Of a stretch of 64,000 nt of DNA, positions 1 through 40,844 are shown one piece after another. The stretch is from Escherichia phage ECML-117. The stretch lies in the sequence record JX128258, one strand, 5' to 3'. Below the pieces are notes generated by a model, which saw nothing but the letters and a program-made list of their open reading frames with translations, did no database searches and was not told the origin of the DNA. How positions within the stretch are numbered: the stretch's first letter is position 1; each line of letters starts with the position of its first letter. Both the position numbers and the translations under genes were made by a program.

Positions 1-94
1 TGATGTATTTATCAATTGTGCCGACGGTCTTAACCCTATGCTGACATTTGAGCGTCGCACCATCCGTGTTGCAACGTTTGGAGGGAAGTTATGA
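1..94 (+). CDS. 3' end of an upstream gene (partial; start lies outside window)
   Basis: Open frame from the window edge (frame of position 2) with no stop until TGA 92-94, overlapping the next start codon. Confidence 0.3.
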   Translation, partial: DVFINCADGLNPMLTFERRTIRVATFGGKL

Positions 95-276
95 GTACCG
101 AAGTCCACAACGCATCAGCCTTGGTTAGCTTTTACCGTAACAAAGGCGTGTCGCTCGTTAAAACGCCGCAAGGGATGTTGTTCTTTGGCACGCGATTCCT
201 GAAAGCATCGGAGCGTGAAACGCTGTCCAAGTTCGACCAGAAAACATTGCACGCAGTTTGGAGAAGACAACAATGA
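91..276 (+). CDS. hypothetical protein (61 aa)
   Basis: ORF-track ORF; GGAGGG Shine-Dalgarno just upstream of ATG 91. Confidence 0.5.
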   Translation: MSTEVHNASALVSFYRNKGVSLVKTPQGMLFFGTRFLKASERETLSKFDQKTLHAVWRRQQ

Positions 277-566
277 GACTAAGCCTAGCGCAAATTCAAA
301 CATTGTACCGGATGGAAGACGGAACGCCATACATGCTGCGCGGCGACCGCAAGAAGGCTTATGAAAAGCGGCCATCACTGTTTCACGACATCAATGCGCC
401 ATCAATCCCTGTCTTATTCCGGTTGGGCCTTGTTGATTGGGCGGCGCCAGGAGAGAAAGACCCGACGCGCTATTCATCCGTGGTGATGACAAAAGCAGGT
501 CGCGCGGCATTAAAAGAGATTAAAGAAAATATGGCTGGAGGTAAATATTATGACATCAAATCTTAA
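273..566 (+). CDS. hypothetical protein (97 aa)
   Basis: ORF-track frame 258..566; internal ATG 273 preceded by GGAGAAG chosen as start. Confidence 0.45.
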   Translation: MRLSLAQIQTLYRMEDGTPYMLRGDRKKAYEKRPSLFHDINAPSIPVLFRLGLVDWAAPGEKDPTRYSSVVMTKAGRAALKEIKENMAGGKYYDIKS

Positions 567-714
567 AGCCCGTTTATTATTCATCAAGCCGCATGTGCCA
601 TATAAGATTAGTAAGCGCACCTGGCTTAACATTTACAACCGCAGCGGCGACCGTTGTTTGTACAAGGCAAAGCGGCGCAAGAAGGTATATTCTTACACAA
701 CATCCATCAAATAA
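550..714 (+). CDS. small basic protein (54 aa), possible nucleic-acid binder
   Basis: ATG 550 preceded by GGAGG (536-540); K/R-rich; below ORF-track size cut-off. Confidence 0.3.
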   Translation: MTSNLKARLLFIKPHVPYKISKRTWLNIYNRSGDRCLYKAKRRKKVYSYTTSIK

Positions 715-732
715 GACTAGGAGAAGAATAAA

Positions 733-1245
733 ATGAAAATCGAACAACTCGAAGCAGTATTGGAAATGGCCGTAAAGGCAGGCGCAATCAAAAGCTATCG
801 TCGCGAGAAGTCAGATAGCGATAAGGTGTTTTGTCGCAACTTCTATATCGTTGGCAACCTTAACGACCACTACACCATCGAGTGGTATACTAACGTGATG
901 ACCCTTAAGTCGCGCACCATGGAGCTTTGGTGTGATGACATCTGTCTTTCGAATACTCACCCAAGCTATGATGTCGCCCTGGCATTCTATCACGGAAGCC
1001 GTCAACCTGTCGCCCACATCGGTGAGAAGCATGAGCATCTTAAGGCACGACCAGAGGAATCAATGGAAGGTTGGATTGAATGGGCTGGCGGAAAGAATCC
1101 GGTGCCTGGTAAGATGGTCGAATACAGGCTGCGCAATGAAGGGGATAAAGTGCTGTCAAGACTCTCTGACCATCTGCACTGGGCCCATATAGGAGGACTA
1201 AAAGGTAGTGACATCATTGCTTATCGGGTCGTTAAGGAGGGATGA
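733..1245 (+). CDS. hypothetical protein (170 aa)
   Basis: ORF with AGGAGAAG RBS; no motif recognised. Confidence 0.55.
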   Translation: MKIEQLEAVLEMAVKAGAIKSYRREKSDSDKVFCRNFYIVGNLNDHYTIEWYTNVMTLKSRTMELWCDDICLSNTHPSYDVALAFYHGSRQPVAHIGEKHEHLKARPEESMEGWIEWAGGKNPVPGKMVEYRLRNEGDKVLSRLSDHLHWAHIGGLKGSDIIAYRVVKEG

Positions 1246-1694
1246 TGGGTAAACGCCTTATCGCCGCTGGTTGGGCCATACCGAAGTGGGGTCATCGTGC
1301 GCATTACTTTGACGAAGGAGAAGTGCAAAGCCTTTGTGGTCGCGCAACGTATTTCGGTGATGAGCGCGTCAGCGGCGATTATATCGACTCGCTTTTAGGC
1401 AAAGGTGATTGCAAGAAGTGTCAGAATATATTAAGGGATATTCTTACGCAAAAAGGATTGCTTGAGCTTGATGAATCGGAAGAAGTAATTGAACTTAAGC
1501 TGGAAGCCAATCACCTTATTAATATGTTCAAGAACTATTACGCAACTAATATGCGCTCAAAAATGAGCGAGGAAGTAATAGAAAAGGTGTTCACCTACAA
1601 TCCGCTAAGGATGAATAAAACCAAATTGAAGAAGTTTAATATAATGTTAAGGAAAGAATTTAAAAGGCTAGGGGTGAAGAATTTTATATTTTAA
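1242..1694 (+). CDS. hypothetical protein (150 aa) with N-terminal Cys cluster
   Basis: Start overlaps previous stop (ATGATGG); Cys at C32/C57/C60 suggests a small metal-binding domain; AT-rich C-terminal half. Confidence 0.5.
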   Translation: MMGKRLIAAGWAIPKWGHRAHYFDEGEVQSLCGRATYFGDERVSGDYIDSLLGKGDCKKCQNILRDILTQKGLLELDESEEVIELKLEANHLINMFKNYYATNMRSKMSEEVIEKVFTYNPLRMNKTKLKKFNIMLRKEFKRLGVKNFIF

Positions 1695-1711
1695 TAGTGA
1701 TTAATGTTAAG

Positions 1712-1735
1712 AGGGCCGATTGGCCCTTTTTGTTT
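1712..1735 (+). terminator. rho-independent terminator
   Basis: AGGGCC-GATT-GGCCCT hairpin followed by TTTTTGTTTG, directly after the 1242..1694 stop. Confidence 0.6.
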
Positions 1736-2019
1736 GCCCGTGGGGTGTGAGTCTTTATTATCGGATAAAGCGATTGATTTGTGTAAATCTATTAGAGGAT
1801 GGTGGGGAATGAGGATTGTGACGTGATTTGTGTGTCTTGAATATGTGTGCGGATTTGGAAGAATATTGTACTGTGGTGCTGTGGGATTGGAGAGGGAATC
1901 ACTAGGTTTTGGGGCGTGTACCGTGGTGTGTGGGCCTGTAGGCTGCGCCGTCTCTGGGATTGCCGCCTGAAATTTAAAAGGAGATATAGTTAGCTGGCTA
2001 ACCTTACGTATAGAATTTA

Positions 2020-2310
2020 AGCGTATAATGACGTAAGATTTGGACCTATCCGTAGTTCACTCCACACACTTCTATGGTGCGCCGCGACTGGGTTCAGTGG
2101 TACATCTTACGGATGATACGGATGATACGCGTCGCCGCTATACTTTATACAACTTTGAAAAAAACAATTAACTCCATTTTGAATTAATTTAAATTAATTT
2201 TTTTCTACATCCTCATACTTATACTAAACTTATGTTTATACGTATTATCCGTAAGATATAAGTAAAAACAAAGACTTGCGGCAATACGGATGATACGTCA
2301 TGATACGCTT
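2020..2310 (+). promoter_or_regulatory. iteron/AT-rich regulatory element, copy A (candidate origin or operator-promoter module)
   Basis: CGTATAATGACGTA at 2022-2035; 45-nt block at 2104-2150 containing tandem GGATGATACG 9-10-mers; AT-rich core 2150-2250; further CGGATGATACG copies at 2285-2306; near-identical block at 18102-18148. Confidence 0.6.
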
Positions 2311-2535
2311 CAACCAGCCAGCAGCGGCTAAGTCATTGATTTGCATAACAAGCGGCGAAAGGGATGGATTTCTTTTATACGTATCAAACAGTACACCACG
2401 CACCACGGTCCGCTATTCATTCAGCACTATGATTTGTGTACTTTTACAGCCAATTTGAACATCAATCTGCACTTGAATATAATGTTCATTCATTGTATAA
2501 TTCACACTATTAATTTGCACTATGGGATTTGCACT

Positions 2536-3009
2536 ATGAGTCAAGATTATGTAGCAATGCCTGAAGACTTTGAAGACCCGCGATTTGCAGAGCATAATCA
2601 GGCATTATTCGATGAGTTCATTGACCTTGTTATTCAGGGCCATGACATGCGCGCAGCTTTTGCACTAGTATTTGGCATGGAGGTTGCGACCGATAACTAC
2701 ACTGGCCAGCGAATCCTCTGCACGCAACGCAATCCGTACTACAAGATGCGCTACAAAAAGCGTATGGAAGAGATGCCATTGAAGGAATTGTGGAGTGTAA
2801 AGAGTTCCATCCACAATTTAGTGAAGCTTGTGCGTGATCCAGAAGTCGCAGCATCAGCCAAGCTTAATGCCATTCGTGAACTGAATATCATCTACGGCAT
2901 CACGATGATTGATGAGAATGGCAATAGTAAAATGGGCCGTTCCATGGACGATTTCTACAAGGATTTTGGAGAGGCAGCCAAAGAGGGTGAGCAATTCTCC
3001 CGCCACTAG
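2536..3009 (+). CDS. hypothetical protein (157 aa)
   Basis: In-frame ATG 2536 inside ORF-track frame 2341..3009; the upstream part of that frame is AT-rich repeat DNA; no clear SD; start overlaps repeat copy 2. Confidence 0.45.
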   Translation: MSQDYVAMPEDFEDPRFAEHNQALFDEFIDLVIQGHDMRAAFALVFGMEVATDNYTGQRILCTQRNPYYKMRYKKRMEEMPLKELWSVKSSIHNLVKLVRDPEVAASAKLNAIRELNIIYGITMIDENGNSKMGRSMDDFYKDFGEAAKEGEQFSRH

Positions 3010-3028
3010 CCAATTTGCACTATAAAAC

Positions 3029-3062
3029 GGCCCTAGAACACATTTTCTCCACTTCTAGGGCC
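3029..3062 (+). other. perfect 10-bp stem-loop (possible terminator or RNA element)
   Basis: GGCCCTAGAA ... TTCTAGGGCC with 14-nt loop, 20 nt after the 2536..3009 stop; no T-run. Confidence 0.45.
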
Positions 3063-3407
3063 ATCGGTAATACGACGGGGAAGGTTACAACCATAAACGC
3101 TTTAGAAAGTGTATTATTATAAGTCATCTTTTAGTCACTTTACGTAACAATTTACGACCTTCCGCCGTCCAGTCGAACGACTCCACCAGCAGATTTGCAC
3201 TATAACCTAAGACGATGCGCCCTTTCTCGTTATCGACCCGCCAACAAGTCTCGAATAGCATTCGATTTGCACTATTAACTATCGCCGCAACGCGCGTTGG
3301 GTAAGCGCAATTTGCACTATGGTCGTAAAGGGATAAGGTGCGACCACTTCCGATGGACAACGTAGCGATGAGAATAAGCGTATTCATAAGCCACCAATTT
3401 GCACTAT

Positions 3408-3431
3408 GAAAAGCGACCCCGAAGGGCCGCC
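3408..3431 (-). terminator. candidate rho-independent terminator (minus strand)
   Basis: On the minus strand GCGGCCC-TTCG-GGGTCGC imperfect hairpin followed by TTTTC, just after the 3438..4064 stop. Confidence 0.4.
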
Positions 3432-3437
3432 ATTCGA

Positions 3438-4064
3438 TTAGATAATCTGGAATGTGTAGGACTTGTTGCCGAACTCAAAGGTCAAGCGTCCAGCTTCTTT
3501 AAGCTTCATGCGGAAGCGAATGTGCTTGCTATCCGGTAATCCCAGCGCGGCGAACGCTACGCGGACCGATTTGAACTCGCCTACACCTTCGACCATGACG
3601 CCGTTACGGGTGAGACGCTTTTGCGCCACTTCCTTGTTATCCCAACTTTTTGCAATACCTTCGCTATTCGAACGGCGATGGGAAGGACTGGCAATTTTAT
3701 CCGCGCCAACCGGAGCATCATTCAGGCCGCTTTTAACGAAGGCTTCATATTCTTCGTCGGTCATCGCGTCGAGTTCTTCCTGGGTCGGCTCCGCTTTTTT
3801 AACGACCGCACGCGCTTTGTGCGTTTTTACATCGCTGGACACTTCCTCGCGCGGCTTCGCGTCTGGGATGGGCGATTCGTTGGACGGCTCATCGAGCGCG
3901 TTTAAGGACTCGATTAACGCGATGACGCGAGTCTCAGCGGTGCGACGGTCCGCAAACTTCTTAATCGGTTTTGAGCCGGAGTTAGCGTTATAGAATGCAA
4001 CGAGGTCGGCGGTCTTAGTTGCGATAACGTCGCCGCTAGTAGAGAAACGATTCAAGCTAACCAT
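3438..4064 (-). CDS. hypothetical early protein (208 aa) with acidic/lysine-rich linker
   Basis: ORF with AGGAG RBS; driven by the leftward promoter at 4134-4161; CpG-rich codon usage unlike the structural genes. Confidence 0.6.
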   Translation of the reverse strand: MVSLNRFSTSGDVIATKTADLVAFYNANSGSKPIKKFADRRTAETRVIALIESLNALDEPSNESPIPDAKPREEVSSDVKTHKARAVVKKAEPTQEELDAMTDEEYEAFVKSGLNDAPVGADKIASPSHRRSNSEGIAKSWDNKEVAQKRLTRNGVMVEGVGEFKSVRVAFAALGLPDSKHIRFRMKLKEAGRLTFEFGNKSYTFQII

Positions 4065-4133
4065 AATAAACTCCTAGTTTGGGAGCGGCGTTAACGACCT
4101 ATTCGCTAACTCATCCCGTCCCGATATGAGTAC

Positions 4134-4161
4134 ATTATAATATAGTGTAGAAAAAAGTAAA
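4134..4161 (-). promoter_or_regulatory. sigma70-like promoter (leftward)
   Basis: Minus strand: TTTACT (-35) - 16 nt - TATAAT (-10); -35 embedded in CGAAAAAGTGCTTTACT, the same 17-mer that precedes the promoter at 4604. Confidence 0.5.
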
Positions 4162-4205
4162 GCACTTTTTCGATAAAAATGCGATAAATTATTTTATCTT
4201 TTTTC

Positions 4206-4233
4206 TTTACTTCTTCGTACACTCGCGTATACT
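4206..4233 (+). promoter_or_regulatory. sigma70-like promoter (rightward)
   Basis: TTTACT - 16 nt - TATACT upstream of gene 4290; shares CTTTACTTCTTCGTACACT with the promoter at 4604. Confidence 0.5.
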
Positions 4234-4289
4234 TGTTTATATCGAGACGGGCGATGGCCCTTCCTTCTACTAGCATCGGGAGCTTTATT

Positions 4290-4592
4290 ATGACTACTTT
4301 AATCTCTTCCATCCTTACTTACGACGAAGACCGTTTAACCGTTCGCTCTCTTATCGCCGCCGTTAACGCGGAACTAGAATCTAGCGCCATTAAGGTCCGC
4401 GCGGTCGCCTTCATCGGCCTTTCCTTCGACGATATGAAGTACGCCGAACGTAGCGCCATCCGCTTCGCGAAGACCGACGACGAAGCCGTTACCCTTATCG
4501 AGACGGTTACGCCGCGCGGCGAAGCGTTAATTATCGTCGAGTATATCGACGTAGAAGGCGATAAATCTTATAAACATTTTATCGCAGAATGA
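4290..4592 (+). CDS. small acidic protein (100 aa), early gene
   Basis: ATG 4290 with GGGAG RBS; net acidic; N-terminus MTTLISSI resembles the next gene's MITLAAI. Confidence 0.55.
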   Translation: MTTLISSILTYDEDRLTVRSLIAAVNAELESSAIKVRAVAFIGLSFDDMKYAERSAIRFAKTDDEAVTLIETVTPRGEALIIVEYIDVEGDKSYKHFIAE

Positions 4593-4603
4593 CGAAAAAG
4601 TGC

Positions 4604-4632
4604 TTTACTTCTTCGTACACTAAGACTATAAT
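4604..4632 (+). promoter_or_regulatory. sigma70-like promoter (rightward)
   Basis: TTTACT - 17 nt - TATAAT; preceded by CGAAAAAGTG upstream element. Confidence 0.55.
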
Positions 4633-4699
4633 GTTTTATATCGAGAGGGGATGAGGTAGCGAATAGGTCGCTACCCTCCCGACTAACTAGGAGAATATT

Positions 4700-4990
4700 A
4701 TGATTACTTTAGCCGCTATCCGTTCCGCTCGCGTCGAAACTTCCGAAAACTCTAACGTATTTGGCGAAACCTTAGAGAGCGTTTATCTCTCTAACGTAGA
4801 CGCAACTATCGAGTCTATTTATGAGCCGATCAACTTTCTCGACCTTTACAAGTATCGCGACGAGGACATCGTATCCTACCGCGTAACGATTAACGGCTTC
4901 GTTTATACGATCACCGAAATCGGCGGCGAATATATAGCTGTACCGCAACTCGGCGGCGAAGTAACTTACTTTAAAATCGTAAGCCTTTAA
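4700..4990 (+). CDS. small acidic protein (96 aa), early gene
   Basis: AGGAGAA RBS; net acidic; possible paralogue of the 4290 gene. Confidence 0.55.
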   Translation: MITLAAIRSARVETSENSNVFGETLESVYLSNVDATIESIYEPINFLDLYKYRDEDIVSYRVTINGFVYTITEIGGEYIAVPQLGGEVTYFKIVSL

Positions 4991-5001
4991 GGAGAAGAAA
5001 G

Positions 5002-5211
5002 ATGACTAATATGAATAACTCTCTTAACGCGCGCGCCCATCGCACCGCCGTAATCGATATGTTTCGCGAGCTTAAGGAATTATGCGATAATATGAACGCG
5101 ATGTTATCCATCGGCGGCTGGGGATACGAAGAAGAAGTTAAATACGCGGTTATGCGTCGCCGTCGCGATAACGTCCTTGGACAAATTAAACGCGCCGGAT
5201 TATTCCTTTAA
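5002..5211 (+). CDS. small protein (69 aa)
   Basis: AAGGAGAAG RBS; followed by a terminator. Confidence 0.5.
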   Translation: MTNMNNSLNARAHRTAVIDMFRELKELCDNMNAMLSIGGWGYEEEVKYAVMRRRRDNVLGQIKRAGLFL

Positions 5212-5237
5212 TTATAATCACCCACCGTTACTAATAG

Positions 5238-5262
5238 GCCGCGCTTAGTCGCGGCTTTTCTT
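5238..5262 (+). terminator. rho-independent terminator
   Basis: GCCGCG-CTTAGT-CGCGGC hairpin followed by TTTTCTT. Confidence 0.55.
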
Positions 5263-5381
5263 CGTCCCTATCTCAATGCGCTTCTCCGCGAAAATTCCTT
5301 TATCCTTCCCTTCGTCGTCGCATAATCTTCGTCGAGATGCTCCTTAGTTCGCATAACGGGTATTACGTTAAATGGAGAACA

Positions 5382-5457
5382 TCGCGTAAGTCCTTGTTTT
5401 ATATAGACACCTATATCGGACCGTTAAGGCGGGTCGCGTAAGTCGTTGTTTTATAAA
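5382..5457 (+). repeat. direct repeat, 2 x 24 bp (TCGCGTAAGTCNTTGTTTTATANA)
   Basis: Copies at 5382-5405 and 5434-5457 in non-coding DNA. Confidence 0.6.
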
Positions 5458-5733
5458 GGCGCAAAACTTTCCCTTCGTTCCGAACTAAAACGAGAAATAT
5501 GCGGACCCTTCGCCCGAAAATAGTACGCATGCGAAATTACCGACATCTAGAATAATCCCCGCCGATATTATCCTACACGCAATCATTAGCCTTCGAATCA
5601 TTATGCTTCATATTATTATGCATCGAATCATTCGCTTTCGAATTGTAACGCTGGAAACTGTAACGGCGATTGATTATTGCGTTCGTGTGGTTTTTATGGC
5701 ATGGGTCTTTTGGTGCGTTTTGGTACTTGATGA

Positions 5734-5845
5734 AATTTGCAGTACACTAATCAAAATACGACACATTTGGTCCACTAACTTTTCAAAGAAAAAGTCCTAG
5801 ACAGTACCGTACTATTTTGTGCCCACAGTAAATTTGCAGTACACT
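5734..5845 (+). repeat. direct repeat, 2 x 16-mer AAATTTGCAGTACACT
   Basis: Copies at 5734-5748 and 5830-5845; core ATTTGCA shared with the 11-mer array at 2513-3407. Confidence 0.6.
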
Positions 5846-5913
5846 CCTGCGCGGCAGGCAAAGAAAGGGCCGCCACAGCGACCCACGATTCACGGTTAAA
5901 TCAGCAACACCCA

Positions 5914-6324
5914 CTATTCGCTCTTATGGGCATCACCAAAGCCATCCGCAATCTGGCTGATCAATGATTCAATGGACACAGTTTTACCAATTGATCGAGC
6001 GGTAATAGCAAGCATATTATCAATCAAACCATGATTGGATGCATATGGTCCAGGTTTTGAATCATCTTCAGGACAGCCAAAAAGCTGGTCGCGCAAACTT
6101 TCGAGAGAACGCTCAATATTTTCCAGCTTCTCTTCTAAATCAGATTGGCGACGTAAAACCCATGTTAAGTCTCGGTTGCCGACTTCCAACCCATCAGAAT
6201 CGCAAGCTGGAACGTCAATTTTGATGCTGCCACCAAAGGCCATTCCGCTGCCTTTAGTATATGTGTTGTGAATAGAATCATTCTTATTTGACATATCATT
6301 ACCTTTCATGAGGGTGATTAACAA
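5914..6324 (-). CDS. hypothetical protein (about 126-136 aa)
   Basis: ORF-track ORF; start probably at internal Met (MSNKND...). Confidence 0.5.
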   Translation of the reverse strand: MLITLMKGNDMSNKNDSIHNTYTKGSGMAFGGSIKIDVPACDSDGLEVGNRDLTWVLRRQSDLEEKLENIERSLESLRDQLFGCPEDDSKPGPYASNHGLIDNMLAITARSIGKTVSIESLISQIADGFGDAHKSE

Positions 6325-6354
6325 TAACTATAATAAAGCCGCATAGCGCGGCAT

Positions 6355-6615
6355 TCAAATCGGTTTGTTAATTGTAACGATTGGATTCATCAATCGATAC
6401 CAACTGTGCTGGGTCGCCGGATACGGTCGAGCCAATGATACCCATCTGCTGAAAGAACTCTGAATAAACTTCCTTCCAGTATCTACGCGCTGCTTTCTGA
6501 GCCTGCCTTTGCGCTTGAAGCTTTTACCTTGAAAGATGAAACGGTCGCTTGCCGCTCGATACTCCACCACACCTTCCAGCCATTGTAAGAACGCTACTGA
6601 TTCATTCTGATTCAT
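6355..6615 (-). CDS. hypothetical protein, possibly frameshifted
   Basis: N-terminal part looks protein-like in the ORF-track frame; around 6520-6535 an alternative frame gives a more protein-like C-terminus (…KEVYSEFFQQMGIIGSTVSGDPAQLVSIDESNRYN). Confidence 0.35.
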   Translation of the reverse strand: MNQNESVAFLQWLEGVVEYRAASDRFIFQGKSFKRKGRLRKQRVDTGRKFIQSSFSRWVSLARPYPATQHSWYRLMNPIVTINKPI

Positions 6616-6622
6616 GTTAACC

Positions 6623-7018
6623 TCAATATTTTAATAAGAAAGCACCCAACCAACTTTCCTCAATCTCGCGGCCAGTAGCCACACGGTCGGTCTTTGCTAT
6701 GGGTCTGGATTCGCCGCAAGGTAATCCGTCTTGCAGTTGTGTACTATTGCCAATTCTCACCATGACCTTTCCATCAGGGTCGATATAAGCGCGACAACCC
6801 ATGATTTCGAGTCGTTGTAGACACTGGCGAATCGTTTTCAGCCTTTCACCGGACCGGATAGAGCGCGGTCGCGACCGCTGACCGTTCTTATTCACTGTCC
6901 GCTTAACGACCGGAATCTCATTGGTGCGTTTCGCTTTCGGTCGGTAATAGGCTTCTTCGCCAGGAGTCGCACCTGGCGTCAATTCACGCTTGAGCGCCTT
7001 TTCAATATCGATGATCAT
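6623..7018 (-). CDS. hypothetical protein (131 aa)
   Basis: ORF-track frame 6623..7078; start placed at internal ATG (MIIDIEKAL). Confidence 0.45.
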   Translation of the reverse strand: MIIDIEKALKRELTPGATPGEEAYYRPKAKRTNEIPVVKRTVNKNGQRSRPRSIRSGERLKTIRQCLQRLEIMGCRAYIDPDGKVMVRIGNSTQLQDGLPCGESRPIAKTDRVATGREIEESWLGAFLLKY

Positions 7019-7111
7019 AATTATGCCGCAGCAGCGTGGATGATTACGTAAACTATGCCAAATAGCGCGGCAATACATACCGTGCCCCAGAATGCAAAGC
7101 GTCGTGACTCT

Positions 7112-7321
7112 TTATCCATTGTCCACCGCTCCAATATCCTTCAAGAACTTGTGCAAGTCACCTTTCTTATTAAGCTTTTGCATAGTTTTGATATCATCAA
7201 GTGATATGCCTTGATCGCTTTGTTGTTTGTCAATGCAGACAATGCCGCCTTTCTTGGCCTTGATTGTCATGCCTTTGGCTTCAATACTTTTTACGAAATC
7301 GGACAATAATTTAATTTCCAT
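7112..7321 (-). CDS. hypothetical protein (69 aa)
   Basis: GAGGTG RBS before ATG (MEIKLLSD). Confidence 0.45.
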   Translation of the reverse strand: MEIKLLSDFVKSIEAKGMTIKAKKGGIVCIDKQQSDQGISLDDIKTMQKLNKKGDLHKFLKDIGAVDNG

Positions 7322-7402
7322 AATACACCTCACTTGTTAACGTATAATGAGTATAACTTAATAGCGCATAAAGTAAAGGCGCTTTTCAGCGCCTTGAGTG
7401 AA

Positions 7403-9760
7403 TTATTTTGCTGCTTTCAGCGCGGCTATTTCTGCCTTTAGTTCATCTATCTGATCCATCAATGCAAGAATTGCCTCGTGATGGAGTGCTGCTGCAACGC
7501 CAGAAGTGTTTACTGACTTTACGTCATCCAGAATTGACCCATCACGCAGGGTGACTGGTGATGATTTTGTTTCTGATACGGCTTCAGGGAAGTCTTTCTC
7601 TACGTCCTGCGCGATGAATCCGTATCCGATTGAGCCATTTGTCTCCAGGACCCATGTGACCCCTTTGATGTTTCTCATCTTGGAGAGCGGATTACTGATG
7701 CGCTCAATGTTGCTTTTAATTCTTTCGTCAGATGTGCTTCGCCATTCCTGGCATCTTGCTATGCCGTCAGCACCAAATAGATAAGAGGCACTGCTGCCAA
7801 TGCCATTCAAAATGTTAAGTTGCGCACGGTCCAATGCTGTTGTGCCACTTCTGACTCCGCCAAGCATCCAATTCCCGTCATACCAGTCGCCGCCAACGGA
7901 GTTTATATAGCCTCCTTCTGGCACATTCGCGTAGTTGATCATCCTGATGGCATTTCTTTCTGAAGCTGCCACCCCGACTGAATTCAACGGTTGTGCAACG
8001 ACATCCTTGGGCCTTACGTATGCGTCAATGTGTAATGCGCCGTCAGGCCTTAGTGTGCCAATTTGAGTCTCTGCGCTTGGGAAGTACAAAGTCCCAGCTT
8101 GGTTGAATGACCATTCTTGCACCCCATTAGATATCACCGCACCTTGTTCAGATGTTAATCCATCAATTTTTCCGTATGCCTGCAAGAATGCTTGATACGC
8201 AACGTTCGTGCCAATCTTATATTCAGATTTTACACTACCGCCTCTGACAAGCGTTCCGGCTGCAGGTTTTACTGCGTCGCCGTTAATCACACTCCAAGAA
8301 GTATTCGCGGCAACAAATCCACCCGATGCACGAATCACCCAAACGCCAACAAAGTTGCGACCCATGATTTCGTCAGTTGCCGCTCCATAAATCGGGCTTG
8401 ATCTGGATGCATCAATATTTATTGTATTGAGACGCCCCTCCACTGCCCCGCTTCCAACAGGTATGGTGTCGCCGCCGCCTTGGGGGTACAAATCGTTGTT
8501 TGTGTAAAAAGCACCTCGGACGGCTGTGCCAAAGATTTGCGCATAAGTGCCTGCCGATACACCAGCAGCTGAGCCTGTGATGTTTGGTGCAGCAGATTCA
8601 AATATTTGACCGTTCGCAGTGGAGTTGCCGCCATCACCGCGCCCGTAAAGCGCCCGTACAGAGCCTGTCTGGACACCGTTAAGGTCTGGGACACGGAATG
8701 TCGTTGTGCCGTTACCTGAAGAATATTTTGCACGTTTGAACTTATCCGCAAGCCAGTCGGCATCTGCGATGGGTGAAAGCATCTGCGCATACGCCCAAAG
8801 TTCAGGCCAGTCAGCACGGTTTAGCAATTGCCCGTCTGCAACGACTTCGTATGGCTGAATATATGATCTACTATTGCGAAGATGGAAATCGCCAACACCA
8901 TAGTTCATGACACCGTTCATACTTGGGCCAACGGTGCCTGTGTTTACTAAGTTTTCAACCCAACGCTTAGTCGCGGCATCATAATCATTTACAGGGTCGC
9001 CAGCGAGCGGCGTTGATCCTTGTGGACGGATGTTTAGCCACGCCTGAGCATTATCTGCAGAGCCTGTGCCGCCCATTGAAGTTGGAACGATGCTCTGATC
9101 AGCAACAGGGCCGAATCCGAAAGCAGTCTTCATTCCTTGAATGGTGGTCTGCCCAGTTCCGCCATTTGCAATTGGAATCGTGCTTTGCGTACTATACATT
9201 TGCACCCAATCCGACCAGGATGATGAGCCAGCATTGTATAGCCTTTGGTATATGGCGTTGATCCAATAAGGCGTATATCTTTGGACGCAGCTTTCTCCTG
9301 CGACGCCAGTATTGTAAACTTCAAGAATACCAGCTTGTGAGACTGGATAGTTCAGCGCCGATGATGCACCAGCATTTGCTGATTGATGATATTGACCAAA
9401 CCATGAACCAGTCAAGGCATTGAGATTTATTCCGTTAGGAATCTCTCCAAAGTTTCGGACAGTACCCGTCAAAGTTGCGGCAGTGGTTCGAATAGAAAGC
9501 ATGTCGCCAGCCGCCCATGCACGCGCTGCAGTCCCTTCTTGTGCACGCTGCACGGTCAGGACGTTTCCAACAACGGCTGTTACTGTGACGATTTCGAATT
9601 GGAGGCCTGTTGCAGCGTCGACGATTGTCGCCACTACACGCTCGTTTGCGCCCAAGGTCGGAAAGCCCGACCCTGAGCGAATTGTGATTGTGGTGTCTGA
9701 AGTCGTCGTTGGTTGAGCCAGCGCGACCTCAAAGTTGTTTTTGAATATTAGCCTTGGCAT
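7403..9760 (-). CDS. tail fibre/tailspike protein with C-terminal intramolecular chaperone (peptidase S74-like) domain
   Basis: 785 aa; fibre-type motifs (IPIANGGTGQTT; collar-like FRVPDLNGV); C-terminus STSDERIKSNIERIS...GVTWV matches the SDxRxK auto-cleaving chaperone signature. Confidence 0.75.
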   Translation of the reverse strand: MPRLIFKNNFEVALAQPTTTSDTTITIRSGSGFPTLGANERVVATIVDAATGLQFEIVTVTAVVGNVLTVQRAQEGTAARAWAAGDMLSIRTTAATLTGTVRNFGEIPNGINLNALTGSWFGQYHQSANAGASSALNYPVSQAGILEVYNTGVAGESCVQRYTPYWINAIYQRLYNAGSSSWSDWVQMYSTQSTIPIANGGTGQTTIQGMKTAFGFGPVADQSIVPTSMGGTGSADNAQAWLNIRPQGSTPLAGDPVNDYDAATKRWVENLVNTGTVGPSMNGVMNYGVGDFHLRNSRSYIQPYEVVADGQLLNRADWPELWAYAQMLSPIADADWLADKFKRAKYSSGNGTTTFRVPDLNGVQTGSVRALYGRGDGGNSTANGQIFESAAPNITGSAAGVSAGTYAQIFGTAVRGAFYTNNDLYPQGGGDTIPVGSGAVEGRLNTINIDASRSSPIYGAATDEIMGRNFVGVWVIRASGGFVAANTSWSVINGDAVKPAAGTLVRGGSVKSEYKIGTNVAYQAFLQAYGKIDGLTSEQGAVISNGVQEWSFNQAGTLYFPSAETQIGTLRPDGALHIDAYVRPKDVVAQPLNSVGVAASERNAIRMINYANVPEGGYINSVGGDWYDGNWMLGGVRSGTTALDRAQLNILNGIGSSASYLFGADGIARCQEWRSTSDERIKSNIERISNPLSKMRNIKGVTWVLETNGSIGYGFIAQDVEKDFPEAVSETKSSPVTLRDGSILDDVKSVNTSGVAAALHHEAILALMDQIDELKAEIAALKAAK

Positions 9761-9798
9761 TTTACGGTCCTCGTTTTGTCGACAACCGTATTATAACC

Positions 9799-10140
9799 TT
9801 AATTTCTTTTGAGAGGAATATGACGGTGGCTGCCATTATCTGGTTTAATAATGAGCATAAAAACGATTAGAAAGATGATGGCTGATATACTTAATTCAAT
9901 CAGCGCGGCCTGAGATATGGATTGATCTTCGTGATACTGCTTTTGCATTTCTGCTTTCTTCTGAGCGCAAACTTCAGGCGATATATAATCACCTTTTGAG
10001 TTGCCATAATAAATCTCGCCATTCTCAGAAATAAGTCTGCCGCAAATATCCGTATCGGCCTTTGCGCTTGACATCATAATAACAGTGCCGATGATAGCAG
10101 CAATTGTCCAGATTAGCAGTTGTGATAAAGTATTGTTCAT
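9799..10140 (-). CDS. small membrane/periplasmic protein (113 aa)
   Basis: Start at internal ATG with AGAGG RBS; N-terminal signal/TM, two Cys in the central domain, C-terminal TM. Confidence 0.5.
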   Translation of the reverse strand: MNNTLSQLLIWTIAAIIGTVIMMSSAKADTDICGRLISENGEIYYGNSKGDYISPEVCAQKKAEMQKQYHEDQSISQAALIELSISAIIFLIVFMLIIKPDNGSHRHIPLKRN

Positions 10141-10336
10141 GATAACCTCTTTAAATTCCCTTCCCATATCGGGAAGGGCGAATGTTATTTTACGCGAAAG
10201 AATAGGCGCGTGCCACACAGCGAGTCCCAACGGCCCTCACCATCCCATATCGACCCAACACCAGCGGTGATTGGGCCAGCAGAATTGGCGGCATTGGCCC
10301 AGGCGAGACGTTTCAACTTCCAACTGCACCAACGAT

Positions 10337-10570
10337 TCACAGTTCACCTCCAGATTGCAAAACAAGTCCCGCATAGAGGATTGCTAAAGCTAAAGGCGCA
10401 CCACTTCCAGCTTCTCTATTCTCTTTGATTTGAAGAGTGTCCTTAAGGAATTGCAGCTGAACGTTGAATTCATTTTCAATTCCAAGCACTCCAGCTAATT
10501 CTTTTACAGAATCTGCATATGCCTTGTCTAGCACTTCTTTTGGTACTGTTAAAGTCAATTCATTTGCCAT
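10337..10570 (-). CDS. hypothetical protein (77 aa) with C-terminal hydrophobic segment
   Basis: Internal ATG (MANELTL) preceded by GGAGTGG. Confidence 0.45.
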   Translation of the reverse strand: MANELTLTVPKEVLDKAYADSVKELAGVLGIENEFNVQLQFLKDTLQIKENREAGSGAPLALAILYAGLVLQSGGEL

Positions 10571-10781
10571 TTTCTTTCCACTCCACAAATGTGCTGCCAC
10601 TTGTTTCTCTATTTAGCAGGTATCTGCCGCGCATTCCATGAAGGCTGAATTCAACCGTCGATGGATTAGATTTTGAAAGCCACATCGCTTGACCGTCGAA
10701 TGGTCCGCCAACGCATGTGTATTTGGCTTTTGGCTCACTCCTTTTGGGCCGTTTTGCCCGCTCTTTGATTGATAGTCTCAT
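10560..10781 (-). CDS. hypothetical protein (73 aa)
   Basis: ORF-track ORF in a tightly packed leftward operon. Confidence 0.4.
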   Translation of the reverse strand: MRLSIKERAKRPKRSEPKAKYTCVGGPFDGQAMWLSKSNPSTVEFSLHGMRGRYLLNRETSGSTFVEWKENGK

Positions 10782-10996
10782 CAGTCTTCACCTTGAGATT
10801 CAAGACAAGTAAGAACAAGCCATGTCATCGGAAGAATCAAAACCAGAGAAATAAGGGACCAGATGGACCAGCACAAGATGACAGACTTGAATGTGTGAAC
10901 GTCGCCAAACGCAGCAGTGAAACAAAATCCCATCACGAAAGCAAGCGCGGTGGAGTGGTTATCAATGGCTTTGATGGCACGGTCGATGAGTTTCAT
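10781..10996 (-). CDS. small membrane protein (71 aa), holin-like candidate
   Basis: Two predicted hydrophobic helices and a charged C-terminus. Confidence 0.4.
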   Translation of the reverse strand: MKLIDRAIKAIDNHSTALAFVMGFCFTAAFGDVHTFKSVILCWSIWSLISLVLILPMTWLVLTCLESQGED

Positions 10997-11085
10997 ATTA
11001 CCTCCGGTTTTGAGTTAATATGATTATAACGCAGAGCTTCAGAAAGGCAAACTTTTTGTGAATTTATGCCGTCCATGGCAAATGA

Positions 11086-11316
11086 TTAGTGAGAAGACAC
11101 GACTAATGTGCCGCTTCCTTTCGCGAAAATCTCAACACCTGGCGGGATTGTGACCGTGCCAACCACTGCGATTCCGATCAACTTGTCATCGGCTTTTTCT
11201 TCGAAACAGATCTCTGCGCCACCGCCGCGAACTTGAATAAGTGCGCCTGATACGTTTTCAGCAACAGAAAGAACGGAAGTGTAAGATGGAGTGAGTTGAA
11301 TATTTACTAGGGCCAT
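11086..11316 (-). CDS. hypothetical protein (76 aa)
   Basis: AGGAG RBS; first gene of the leftward operon. Confidence 0.45.
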   Translation of the reverse strand: MALVNIQLTPSYTSVLSVAENVSGALIQVRGGGAEICFEEKADDKLIGIAVVGTVTIPPGVEIFAKGSGTLVVSSH

Positions 11317-11330
11317 GATTTACTCCTGAT

Positions 11331-11357
11331 AAAAAAATGGCCAGAAAGAATCTGGCC
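11331..11357 (-). terminator. intrinsic-terminator-like hairpin in the leader of the leftward operon
   Basis: Minus strand: GGCCAGA-TTCTT-TCTGGCC hairpin followed by T7, ending about 6 nt before the RBS of gene 11086..11316. Confidence 0.4.
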
Positions 11358-11404
11358 GAAAAGATCACCCTTTATCCACTACTAAGCTGGAATCATAATT
11401 TTAC

Positions 11405-11434
11405 TTGATATAGCTGTCGCAAGCAAACTATAAT
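11405..11434 (+). promoter_or_regulatory. sigma70-like promoter upstream of the terminase gene
   Basis: TTGATA - 18 nt - TATAAT; the -10 abuts ATG 11435, so the true start may be Met at 11468. Confidence 0.4.
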
Positions 11435-12895
11435 ATGAATAAAATATTAACACATAATTGGAAAGTCATGTACCAGTTGAATCCTGCTTTAAGAGAAGTC
11501 TGGAAGACGAAAGCGCGATACAAAGTAATATACGGTGGTCGTGCATCTTCCAAATCGCATGATGCCGCTGGTTTTGCTATTTATTTGGCGGCAAACTTTA
11601 AATTAAAATTCCTTTGCGTTCGACAATTCCAGAACAAGATTTCTGAATCAGTATATACGCTATTAAAAGACAAAATAGAAATTTCTGATTTCAAAGATGA
11701 GTTCAACTTATTAAAGAACTCCATTGAACACAAAAGAACAAAATCTGAATTCTTATTTTACGGTATCGCACGCAATGTTGACGAAATCAAATCAACAGAA
11801 GGCGTTGATGTTCTTTGGCTTGAAGAAGCGCACGCACTTACTGAAGAGCAGTGGGACATCATTGAGCCGACAATTCGTAAGGAAGGGTCAGAAATATGGA
11901 TCATATTTAACCCTGATGAAGAGGCTGATTTCGTCTACCAGAACTTTGTTATGCGACCGCCTAAAAATGCCATCGTTAAGAAGATTAACTGGCAGGACAA
12001 TCCATTCTTGTCGCAAACAATGCTGGACGTTATCGCTGGCATGTATGAGCGCGACCCGAAAAAGGCAGAACACGTTTATGGCGGAGTACCGAAGACAGGC
12101 GGCGACAAGTCGGTCATCAACCGTGCATTCGTCAAGGCCGCGCTAAACCTCCACAAACACCCTACGTTGGGATGGAGCTTGTCAGGGTCTAACCGTATAG
12201 GCTTTGACGTGGCAGACGACGGCGACGACTTAAACGCCACAGCATTTGTCACGGGCAACGTATTGCGCGGCATCAAGACATGGGAAGGTCTGGAAGATGA
12301 ATTGCTTAAGTCCGCAAGCGGAGTTTGGAAAGATGCATTAACATTCGGCGCATCAATTACCTATGACGCCATCGGTGTTGGTGCATTTGCTGGTTCAAAA
12401 TTTGATGAGCTTAATGAGTATGCAATCCATGAAAATCCAACATTCCCAAGAATCGAATTTAATGCGTTCAACGCGCAAGGTGCTGTTGATGATCCTGATG
12501 ACGTCTTCCTTGAGTTACCACACGTTGAAATACTCAATAAAGACCATTTCGCAAACATAAAAGCGCAAAAATGGACTGAGATTGCCGAACGATTCAGGAA
12601 GACATATGAGTATGCAACAGGGCAGGCCGTATACCCGACTGATGAGCTGATTTCCATCGACACAGACGGCATTCCAGAACTTGGGATTCCTGCTTGGTCT
12701 GCGGAAGAAATTGAGACATTTCTTTTTGAGATGTCAGCGCCGCGCAAAGACACGTCTGTGCTTGGTAAGTTTAAAGTTGAATCGAAAAAGGATATGGCAA
12801 AGCGTGGAGTCAAATCGCCTAACAAAGCGGACGCAGCAATCATGGCGTTGATGAAACCAATTGTTGCAGCATCCGGCTTCTTCTCTAACCTTTAA
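11435..12895 (+). CDS. terminase large subunit
   Basis: Walker A GGRASSKS, Walker B VDVLWLEEAH, C-terminal nuclease acidic motif FDVADDGDD; alternative start 11468. Confidence 0.9.
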   Translation: MNKILTHNWKVMYQLNPALREVWKTKARYKVIYGGRASSKSHDAAGFAIYLAANFKLKFLCVRQFQNKISESVYTLLKDKIEISDFKDEFNLLKNSIEHKRTKSEFLFYGIARNVDEIKSTEGVDVLWLEEAHALTEEQWDIIEPTIRKEGSEIWIIFNPDEEADFVYQNFVMRPPKNAIVKKINWQDNPFLSQTMLDVIAGMYERDPKKAEHVYGGVPKTGGDKSVINRAFVKAALNLHKHPTLGWSLSGSNRIGFDVADDGDDLNATAFVTGNVLRGIKTWEGLEDELLKSASGVWKDALTFGASITYDAIGVGAFAGSKFDELNEYAIHENPTFPRIEFNAFNAQGAVDDPDDVFLELPHVEILNKDHFANIKAQKWTEIAERFRKTYEYATGQAVYPTDELISIDTDGIPELGIPAWSAEEIETFLFEMSAPRKDTSVLGKFKVESKKDMAKRGVKSPNKADAAIMALMKPIVAASGFFSNL

Positions 12896-13713
12896 CAATT
12901 AAAGCATTCCGTGCTGAAGGTCGAGTTTTCTTGCGGCAAACGACCTGGCACGGAATCGCTTACCCGCCCTTACTGCCTGTCGAATCTTCTTTTGCAAACA
13001 CTTACGATCAAAATCGTTGCGGTCGACGGCTTCGAGTAAATCACGACGCAGAGCACCCAGTGTCGACTTTTCAGAGACTTCAACGCCCAGCGCCGCTGCA
13101 ACGTCTTTCAAAACATCGAGTTCGGTTAAAGTTCTCATTTGATAATCCCCTTGATGTCTGATTCTGCCATAAAGATTGGAGTTCCGCCGCCAGGAACAAT
13201 CGAGCGCGTGACTTTATCAAACATATCGTTTTCTTCAACTTGAATACGATAGAATTTATTTTTGGATGAAGATGGGCACAATCCCATAAATTTGCCGATT
13301 CCGCGAACGCATTCATCTTCAAAGTATACTGTTTCACCTTGGATGGAGTCGATGTCGTCTACTGGATAGACCTTGCGACCCAATAGCCACTCGTCCATAG
13401 TCGCCTGCAAGACGTTTCGCGCATCTAAAATCCACGGGTCAATAGTAGCACCTTCGTATCGCGCAGCAGTGGCCTTTGCCAGTTCTTCATATTCGCATAC
13501 GTTAACGACTTCGCCGTTGTGCAAGACGACAAATACAATTGTTGTGCTCATTTCAATCTCCTTTCGTTTGGTTAACTAAAATATAACTCAAAATGATGCA
13601 AAAGCAAAATATTTTATGAACTATTTATGATCACCATACATATCATTTGCTTACAAACACATGAATATTTATAATATAGATTGATTCCCTTTCACTGTCA
13701 GGTGGCGTTAACA

Positions 13714-18049: not shown

Positions 18050-18330
18050 ACGCGTATAATGACGTATCATCCGTATCAAGTAAGTAGTTGTTTTCAAAAG
18101 AATCTTACGGATGATACGGATGATACGCGTTGCCGCGATACTTTATAGGAATTCAAATAAATTAATTTAAAATTATATATCTAATTTAATTTTATTTTTT
18201 TATAAACTCTTATATATGAAAAGTATCCGTATCATCCGTATCATCCGTAGCACACCAGTGATAGCGCGGCTTATACACCGATACGGATAAAAAATACGCC
18301 TCATCTTATCCGTATCATCCGTATCACACT
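18050..18330 (+). promoter_or_regulatory. iteron/AT-rich regulatory element, copy B
   Basis: CGTATAATGACGTA at 18053-18066; 45-nt block at 18102-18148 (about 44/47 identity to 2104-2150); CCGTATCATCCGTATC arrays at 18063-18077, 18225-18248 and 18309-18326; AT-rich core 18146-18225. Confidence 0.6.
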
Positions 18331-40783: not shown

Positions 40784-40844
40784 TATAATTCACCTTTTGA
40801 TTATGAATATTAATAGTATAGGCTTAAGGTTTTGAAAGTAAATA

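Follow-up and report, generated by a model that had tools for sequence, protein, structure and literature searches.

A CA/TG-purged block inside the terminal repeat of the Wifcevirus phage ECML-117: a candidate pre-early module shared by three phage genera

In Bacillus phage SPO1, small early genes with strong early promoters and ribosome-binding sites (RBSs) lie in the terminal redundancy as a host-takeover module; in phage T7 the terminal repeat is 160 bp long and non-coding. Phages T5 and BF23 carry pre-early genes in the terminal repeat, and that DNA enters the cell first, with products that disable the defences of the host (PMC10644984). In T5, the action of restriction-modification (R-M), CRISPR and Ssp systems requires sites within the DNA that enters first, and how this DNA survives the phage-induced destruction of host DNA is described as "not clear" (PMC10644984). 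Here we report the analysis of a block of about 2 kb in Escherichia phage ECML-117 (sequence record JX128258), studied within a stretch of 64,000 nucleotides that we refer to as the window. The block is nearly devoid of the dinucleotides CA and TG, lies in the direct terminal repeat (DTR) of the phage and recurs at the same DTR position in phages of three genera.

The composition anomaly is real and is found once in the window. Between 4065 and 5500 the observed/expected ratios are 2.15 for CG, 1.28 for TA, 0.32 for CA and 0.36 for TG, compared with 1.09, 0.66, 1.19 and 1.18 in the rest of the window. Over 4065-5620, CA and TG together occur 71 times where 228 occurrences are expected (binomial P ~7e-38), and the minimum in any other window of equal size is 186. 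The maximum-scoring segment extends over 3724..5575, with the strongest signal at 4065-5500 and a weaker gradient back to ~3000. The initial annotation, made from the letters alone, had marked 3438-5262 as a CpG-rich early cassette of a composition unlike its surroundings. CpG is indeed raised, but the dominant signal is the loss of CA/TG rather than the gain of CpG, and the anomaly continues past the terminator to ~5575-5620 in non-coding DNA. All trinucleotides that contain CA or TG are depleted except ATG/CAT: CAG/CTG is 17-fold down (3 versus ~53), CAA/TTG 5.6-fold and CCA/TGG 4-fold. What TG remains in the genes is mostly in Met codons, and the remaining CA lies mostly across codon boundaries. 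In the non-coding tail (5263..5620), which runs to the DTR edge and holds a direct repeat, TCGCGTAAGTCNTTGTTTTATA, at 5382 and 5434, CA/TG is depleted about two-fold. The amino acids whose codons need CA or TG (His, Gln, Cys, Trp and partly Met) are almost absent from the two proteins gR1 and gR2 described below. Most simply, the depletion of CA/TG is the primary signal and the excess of CpG and TpA its by-product, since transitions in CA/TG yield CG or TA and are mostly synonymous at third codon positions. The usual direction of the CpG/UpA bias of viral and cellular sequences is thereby reversed, with CpG and TpA high and CpA and TpG low. Restriction-site avoidance is likewise a sequence-level evasion that shapes oligonucleotide content, but it concerns specific palindromes throughout a genome, whereas here a whole dinucleotide pair is gone from a 2-kb island.

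The window belongs to a Wifcevirus. Region 3000-5700 is matched at 94-97% identity by 27 phage records, all of them Wifcevirus myoviruses of E. coli or Shigella, including Ro157lw, F13, SP13, Mansfield, WFC/WFH and Bas98-101 of the BASEL collection, and the purged block is likewise present in Mansfield, WFC, Bas99, Ro157lw, F13 and SP13. The Mansfield record carries a PhageTerm-predicted DTR at 1-3673, and bases 1-3784 of the WFC record are 100% identical at both record ends and map to window positions 2176 and ~5790. The DTR of ~3.6 kb thus runs in the window from ~2176 to ~5710 by the Mansfield coordinates, or to ~5790 by those of WFC. The originally marked interval, 3438-5262, is wholly inside the DTR, in the half that adjoins one of its boundaries, and the half that is not purged carries a TerS-like gene (2536-3009). 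A paper on synthetic phage vB_Eco4M-7 gave no data on genome ends. In vitro assembly of the 68-kb phage genome has been achieved (PMC11074155).

Profiling all loci with relatives of gL, the leftward gene of the block, in IMG/VR revealed a purged block also in Serratia phage MTx (~1500-3520, within a PhageTerm DTR at 1-3566) and in Pantoea phage Kyle (~1700-3500, within a DTR at 1-3603). In Serratia phage MyoSmar, whose record is in the opposite orientation, bases 1-2000 are purged and the PhageTerm DTR is 1-3559. The purged ~2 kb thus forms, in each of the three genera, the outermost part of one end of the packaged DNA, and the other half of the DTR in the Serratia and Pantoea phages again holds a TerS-like gene of ordinary composition. 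MTx carries two paralogs of the gL family, of which MTx_006 (2714-3220) lies in the purged block and has ratios of 0.28 for CA and 0.22 for TG, whereas MTx_016 (6483-7517, 344 aa) lies outside the DTR and has 0.91 and 1.11; composition thus follows position and not gene ancestry. Scans of IMG/VR with the promoter cassette described below and with gL relatives found purged blocks in Wifcevirus, Myosmarvirus and Kylevirus only; Pbunavirus-like relatives have no such block, merely a mild dip at the gL gene. Our literature search found no description of a CA/TG or CpG island in phage terminal repeats, and a terminal CA/TG-purged island conserved over three phage genera appears to be undescribed.

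As read from its sequence signals, the block comprises two short, inversely oriented transcription units with putative sigma-70-type promoters. A consensus scan recovered the three promoters of the initial annotation at the positions it had given: one leftward, TTTACT-16-TATAAT (4134..4161, - strand), and two rightward, TTTACT-16-TATACT (4206..4233, +), which has a shorter leader (4239-4289), and TTTACT-17-TATAAT (4604..4632, +). The intrinsic terminator of the rightward operon was found equally well placed by a sequence scan (5236..5257, +, with a T-run to 5262); that downstream of gL, GGCGGCCCTTCGGGGTCGC followed by TTTT (3413..3430, -), was read from the sequence, and the orthologous site is annotated in WFC at 1238-1255. 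Within the 64-kb window there are 5 matches to TTTACT-N16/17-TATAMT against 0.01 expected, and 3 of them are in the block. The other two, TTTACT-N16-TATACT at 7350-7377 (-) and 40815-40842 (-), come after terminators and ahead of genes of ordinary composition, and the TTTACT -35 element is therefore the general promoter flavour of this phage and not merely a result of TG avoidance. The 17-mer CGAAAAAGTGCTTTACT lies, as had been claimed, upstream of two of the promoters in opposite orientations: one copy (4156..4172, -) forms the upstream element and -35 region of the leftward promoter, and the other (4593..4609, +) is at the second rightward promoter.

Alignment of the three copies, together with a listing of inverted repeats, established that the 17-mer is part of a larger repeated cassette, made up of an A-rich upstream element, CTTTACT, 16-17 nt, TATAAT, a ATATCGAGRGGG start region, a leader hairpin, a strong AGGAG RBS and the first codons. 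In the leftward transcript the leader hairpin (4081..4122, -; -17.6 kcal/mol) has the stem GUUAGCGA/UCGUUAAC and the loop AUAGG and is followed by the RBS AGGAG; its rightward counterpart (4644..4684, +; -21.3 kcal/mol, z -2.9) has the core GGUAGCGA-AUAGG-UCGCUACC at 4655-4675, followed by AGGAG and ATG. The two hairpins have a common CGAAUAGGUCG core with different stem bases, and the MTx leader has the same CGAAUAGGUCG hairpin, again with different stem bases. No Rfam covariance model came at or near its gathering score in a scan of 2000-6200. The cassette recurs, as CTTTACT-N16/17-TATAAT-GT.TATATCG with a leader hairpin, in both MTx and Kyle. In F13, 3055-3870 contains a tandem duplication of ~300 bp of the region of gR1 and the promoter cassette (window 4398-4700 is matched twice), which indicates that the cassette recombines. 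Early promoters of the T4 type have a GTTTAC -35 consensus. The T4 "uber" early promoters (UP/-35/TGn/-10; PMC2988021) resemble those of the block in the A-rich upstream element, the TTTAC-type -35 and the perfect TATAAT. They differ in that none of the three copies in the block has a TGn extended -10, which fits TG avoidance, and in that the ATATCGAGRGGG start region and leader hairpin are specific to the present phage clade.

The genes of the block are genuine and under purifying selection, with dN/dS of 0.04-0.6 among Wifcevirus orthologs. The only gene of the leftward unit in the window is gL (3438..4064, -), which encodes a basic protein of 208 aa (pI 9.0; dN/dS 0.05-0.10). It gave a full-length profile match to phrog_4730, a widespread phage family (E 1.9e-91, residues 4-208), and its relatives form 845 clusters at 50% identity in which N- and C-terminal modules are conserved; searches of Pfam and PDB found no relatives. 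The gene is depleted of CA and TG to an intermediate degree (0.65 and 0.77). The rightward operon begins with gR1 (4290..4592, +), an acidic ORFan of 100 aa (pI 4.65, net charge -7) that evolves relatively fast at the protein level (dN/dS 0.18-0.61), and gR2 (4700..4990, +), an acidic ORFan of 96 aa (pI 4.23, net charge -8; dN/dS 0.04-0.18). A third gene, gR3 (5002..5211, +), had been overlooked; its basic product of 69 aa (pI 9.5) matches phrog_10377 over its full length (E 1.6e-37, residues 1-69), a family annotated as "transcriptional regulator", an assignment for which Pfam and PDB gave no support. Ro157lw, SP13 and F13 carry this accessory gene, and Mansfield, WFC and Bas99 lack it.

The description of the first two rightward products as net-acidic proteins of about 100 aa was thus correct, and the isoelectric points bear it out for this pair, the leftward protein being basic. 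That the two are duplicates was not borne out: BLASTP returned no alignment between gR1 and gR2 and hhalign gave a probability of 0.1%. Their N-termini do have M-x-T-L in common, but as the tail of the repeated promoter, leader and start cassette and not through paralogy. The paralog of gR2 is instead Mansfield_005 (hhalign 92.8%, E 4e-7; hmmsearch 2.5e-5), a leftward gene that is absent from the window. Homologs of gR1 and gR2 are confined to contigs of Wifcevirus size. The genes in the corresponding place in the other genera also encode small acidic proteins (net charge -18 for MTx_004, -8 for MTx_005, -21 for MyoSmar_003, -18 for Kyle_6 and -10 for Kyle_7), to which an iterated HMM search of all DTR open reading frames (ORFs) found no detectable similarity of gR1 or gR2. 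When all proteins of the block were scanned against Pfam and PHROG, only phrog_4730 and phrog_10377 were matched; gR1 has no Pfam family at E<=1, gR2 only a sub-threshold, unrelated Pfam match, and neither has NCBIfam or PDB sequence relatives. AlphaFold (AF2) models of both are mixed alpha/beta and of low confidence (pLDDT 46 and 54), and Foldseek searches with them against PDB and BFVD gave nothing usable, returning only the WFH ortholog.

We suggest that the block is an immediate-early ("pre-early") module for host takeover and anti-defence of the T5 kind, carried on first-entering DNA and purged of CA/TG as a form of stealth at the sequence level, a reading that we put forward tentatively and at a little under an even chance. 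The block DNA would enter the cell first, as the T5 terminal repeat does, and the cassette would drive expression of the gL-family basic protein, of two or three small acidic ORFans and, in the strains that have it, of a regulator-like protein. These products may bring the host under phage control and disarm its nuclease-based defences while the remaining genome is still unexposed. The near-absence of CA/TG would then be a DNA-level constraint under selection, with CpG and TpA as transition replacements, and would spare the exposed segment from a sequence-reading activity, which could belong to the host, as its defence or its repair nucleases, or be induced by the phage against ordinary DNA. 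Early expression, as the initial annotation had proposed, is suggested by strong promoters with A-rich elements, by genus-restricted small ORFans under purifying selection and by a location at the DTR end like that of the T5 pre-early genes; this is support from context. Anatomy, location, composition, conservation in three genera and purifying selection on the genes are shown directly; the early timing, first entry, anti-defence role and reason for the purge we infer.

The likeness to T5 and BF23 extends to several traits, namely genes in a long DTR, two units that run in opposite directions from strong promoters of the host type, mostly small proteins thought to serve host takeover or anti-defence, and repeat arrays that adjoin the units; in the window, ATTTGCACTAT (seven copies) and the GAATCATT and AAATTTGCAGTACACT repeats flank the block. 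The repeat is shorter, however, at 3.6 kb compared with ~10 kb, and only ~2 kb of the 3.6 kb holds the module. The class I region of T7 (promoters A1-A3, RNase III hairpins and gene 0.3, Ocr) also has strong host-polymerase promoters near the leading end, a small acidic first product and a hairpin ahead of each cistron, and in MTx every gene of the operon has one. The block shows no sequence or profile similarity to Ocr and its units are short and terminated, so that their transcription is unlikely to draw the genome into the cell. SPO1 belongs to an unrelated phage lineage with an unrelated host and shows no homology to the block, and we know of no reported dinucleotide purge in its host-takeover module.

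The restriction phenotype of these phages bears on the proposed function. Wifceviruses show broad restriction resistance without a known protection mechanism (PMC11990801). They are virulent on E. coli and Shigella, with very short reported latent periods, and resisted five of six tested R-M systems while being very sensitive to EcoP1. Bas98-101 have 4-5 EcoKI, 2-4 EcoCFT_I, 36-38 EcoRI, 6-10 EcoRV and ~90 EcoCFT_II sites, and all these systems are resisted. We reproduced the published AGACC, EcoRI and EcoRV counts on Bas99; for the EcoCFT_II motif, the published site counts left five candidates and no decision among them. T5, too, is resistant to R-M without DNA modification, its sensitivity depending on sites in the first-entering DNA, but it resists EcoP1, to which Wifceviruses are sensitive. 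The block contains AGACC at 4328 and 4471, with GGTCT at 4011 and 5704, giving head-to-head pairs, and it has no EcoKI, EcoAI, EcoRI or EcoRV site. This pattern of sites and the EcoP1 sensitivity are weak evidence for a fit to the T5 rule, and the published resistance phenotypes fit an early anti-restriction function.

Other origins for the unusual composition have to be weighed against selection for stealth. A local, context-specific bias of mutation or repair from CA/TG to CG/TA, for example through terminal-repeat copying or single-strandedness, would need no selection and would account for an anomaly that is limited to part of the DTR and for the symmetrical enrichment of CG and TA, both transition products. 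The polymorphism spectrum, however, points to selection and not mutation bias as what maintains the purge. The variants that segregate between seven to nine Wifcevirus genomes comprise 105 transitions, of which 39 create CA or TG (~42% by chance), and 77 transversions, of which 11 do so (~24% by chance); these 50 creating variants compare with 17 that destroy CA/TG, so that destroying variants are not in excess. Per-genome CA/TG counts are still low; mutation therefore pushes towards CA/TG and the low, stable count is held by selection, a conclusion also supported by the persistence of the signature across genera in which the block DNA cannot be aligned. Since, in addition, the composition of this DTR is normal in its TerS half, coding parts are more depleted than non-coding ones and the amino-acid content has been reshaped, we give a mutational origin little credence. 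Recent horizontal import from a donor with another genome signature, not yet drifted to that of the phage, would explain the sharp composition boundaries and why the small proteins are ORFans. We regard it as highly improbable, because three genera carry an identical signature at the same DTR position in block sequences that do not align, and the accessory genes gR3 and Mansfield_005 all carry it as well. The composition of paralogs differs by location (MTx_006 versus MTx_016), and a neutral import would have lost its signature, since new variants give rise to CA/TG as often as chance predicts. We know of no genome with a CA/TG observed/expected ratio near 0.3. Persistence and the paralog contrast thus argue against both recent import and local mutation bias. 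A constraint on RNA or translation, by which early mRNAs avoid CA/UG targets of ribonucleases or codons of unavailable or attacked tRNAs, would agree with the near-elimination of in-frame CA/TG codons, with the near-absence of His, Gln, Cys and Trp and with a depletion that is strongest in the transcription units. Yet both strands are symmetrically depleted whatever the orientation of the genes, depletion extends across codon boundaries, into promoter regions and ~350 bp past the terminator, and the avoided codons include CTG, the most abundant in E. coli. This symmetry, the depletion of the flanks and the absence of tRNA genes from the window argue against a purely translational cause, and we consider a constraint of this kind improbable.

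A different explanation places the weight on the proteins. The initial annotation had read the small acidic products as typical of DNA-mimic anti-restriction or host-takeover factors, and gR1 and gR2 could be duplicated anti-restriction proteins of the Ocr/ArdA type, in which case the odd composition would come from foreign origin or codon usage. Small acidic proteins whose genes come first after strong promoters at the end of the genome, still more acidic positional counterparts (MTx_004, MyoSmar_003 and Kyle_6) and a genus-wide, unexplained restriction resistance would be in keeping with it. Against it, the two proteins are not detectably related, they have no Pfam, NCBIfam or PDB matches, the Ocr and ArdA families included, and their net charge is modest, with Asp and Glu making up 15-18% of residues, while the low-confidence mixed alpha/beta models match no fold. 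The resistance of Wifceviruses covers the type II enzymes EcoRI and EcoRV, and Ocr-type mimics, to our knowledge, leave EcoRI and other type II enzymes uninhibited. Furthermore, the anomaly spans non-coding flanks and a basic protein and so tracks location and not a gene family. We therefore consider the DNA-mimic reading unlikely, although an early anti-defence role of some kind is still our best guess.

Several observations weigh against a T5-like stealth module as well. The terms "early" and "first-entering" rest on analogy with T5, and no homologs of T5 A1, A2 or dmp were found when every block protein was compared with Pfam and PHROG. The T5 terminal repeat is without CA/TG depletion and has only mildly raised CpG; T5 was accordingly rejected as a precedent for the purge itself, its terminal-repeat CA/TG ratios being normal (0.7-1.2). 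Within T5 1-14000, CpG observed/expected is 1.3-1.5 in the terminal repeat and 0.5-0.9 just outside, a mild compositional island. The absence of four R-M site types from 2 kb is expected by chance, as only ~1 site in total is expected, and CA/TG-creating variants segregate freely, which makes selection per site weak. When 4-bp palindromes were compared with a dinucleotide model, the block showed no general avoidance: only GATC is clearly low (4 versus 22) and TCGA is over-represented, and avoidance of palindromes or restriction sites in general was rejected as the cause of the purge. The known type I motifs considered contain CA/TG no more often than chance, and generic restriction-site avoidance thus explains the purge poorly. 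GATC is low throughout the genome (111 sites versus 250 expected at equal base use), and CAGCAG, the EcoP15I site, is frequent in the window (69 sites). Finally, a purge that is found in three host genera argues for one conserved agent, and this suggests a core function of the host or an activity encoded by the phage rather than a single variable restriction system.

If the agent were encoded or triggered by the block itself, DNA without CA/TG could act as a self-marker: a pre-early activity would attack or silence DNA or RNA that contains CA/TG, and the block would be immune. Its targets would include host DNA and the remaining genome of the phage itself until the activity is switched off, and the block, as the sole phage DNA present at that stage, would be without the minimal recognition element. 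We think this quite unlikely. If true, it would be a modification-free discrimination of self from non-self by dinucleotide content, and for this clade it would answer the question raised for T5 of how first-entering DNA survives.

Besides the block, the DTR and its boundaries contain repeats. The seven copies of ATTTGCACTAT are all on one strand (+) between 2513 and 3407 and nowhere else in the 64 kb, often with CCACCAGC just before them, and flank the TerS-like gene in the non-purged half. Analogous arrays are found in Kyle (TTGCACTAC and TTCGCACTA, 8 copies, plus five of CCACCAGC) and in MTx (three of CCACCAGCA), and arrays of this type may be sites of packaging recognition or injection stop. 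Iteron-like tandem repeats of 9 bp, TTACGGATGATACGGATGATACGCG, with inverted copies, flank very AT-rich spacers at 2101-2300 and 18090-18330; the former locus coincides with the left DTR boundary (~2176), and the repeats could be an origin, operators or boundary marks. The right boundary (5580-5850) holds three copies of GAATCATT at 5584-5640 and two of AAATTTGCAGTACACT at 5733 and 5830, and is likely to be a terminase cutting or recognition region. At the DTR boundary of Kyle (~3440-3640) there are AATGATTA/AATCATT repeats and AATTTCACAGTACACT. Downstream of the gL terminator, an ORF for a basic protein of 87 aa (3124-3387, -), annotated in relatives as Mansfield_003, is of intermediate composition (CG 1.72, CA 0.65) and gave no family match.

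The 2-kb block described here is a concrete candidate locus for the restriction resistance of Wifcevirus, to which the CA/TG purge is possibly tied. This leads to the prediction that sites put into the block would sensitise the phage and that removal of AGACC would relieve restriction by EcoP1. The purge has been strong enough to strip four amino acids from the encoded proteins and is conserved in phages of E. coli, Serratia and Pantoea, which implies a strong sequence-reading pressure on the leading end of the infecting genome. Identification of the agent behind this pressure could reveal a new mechanism of defence or takeover, and could yield a design rule for engineered phage or plasmid DNA that is "invisible" on entry.

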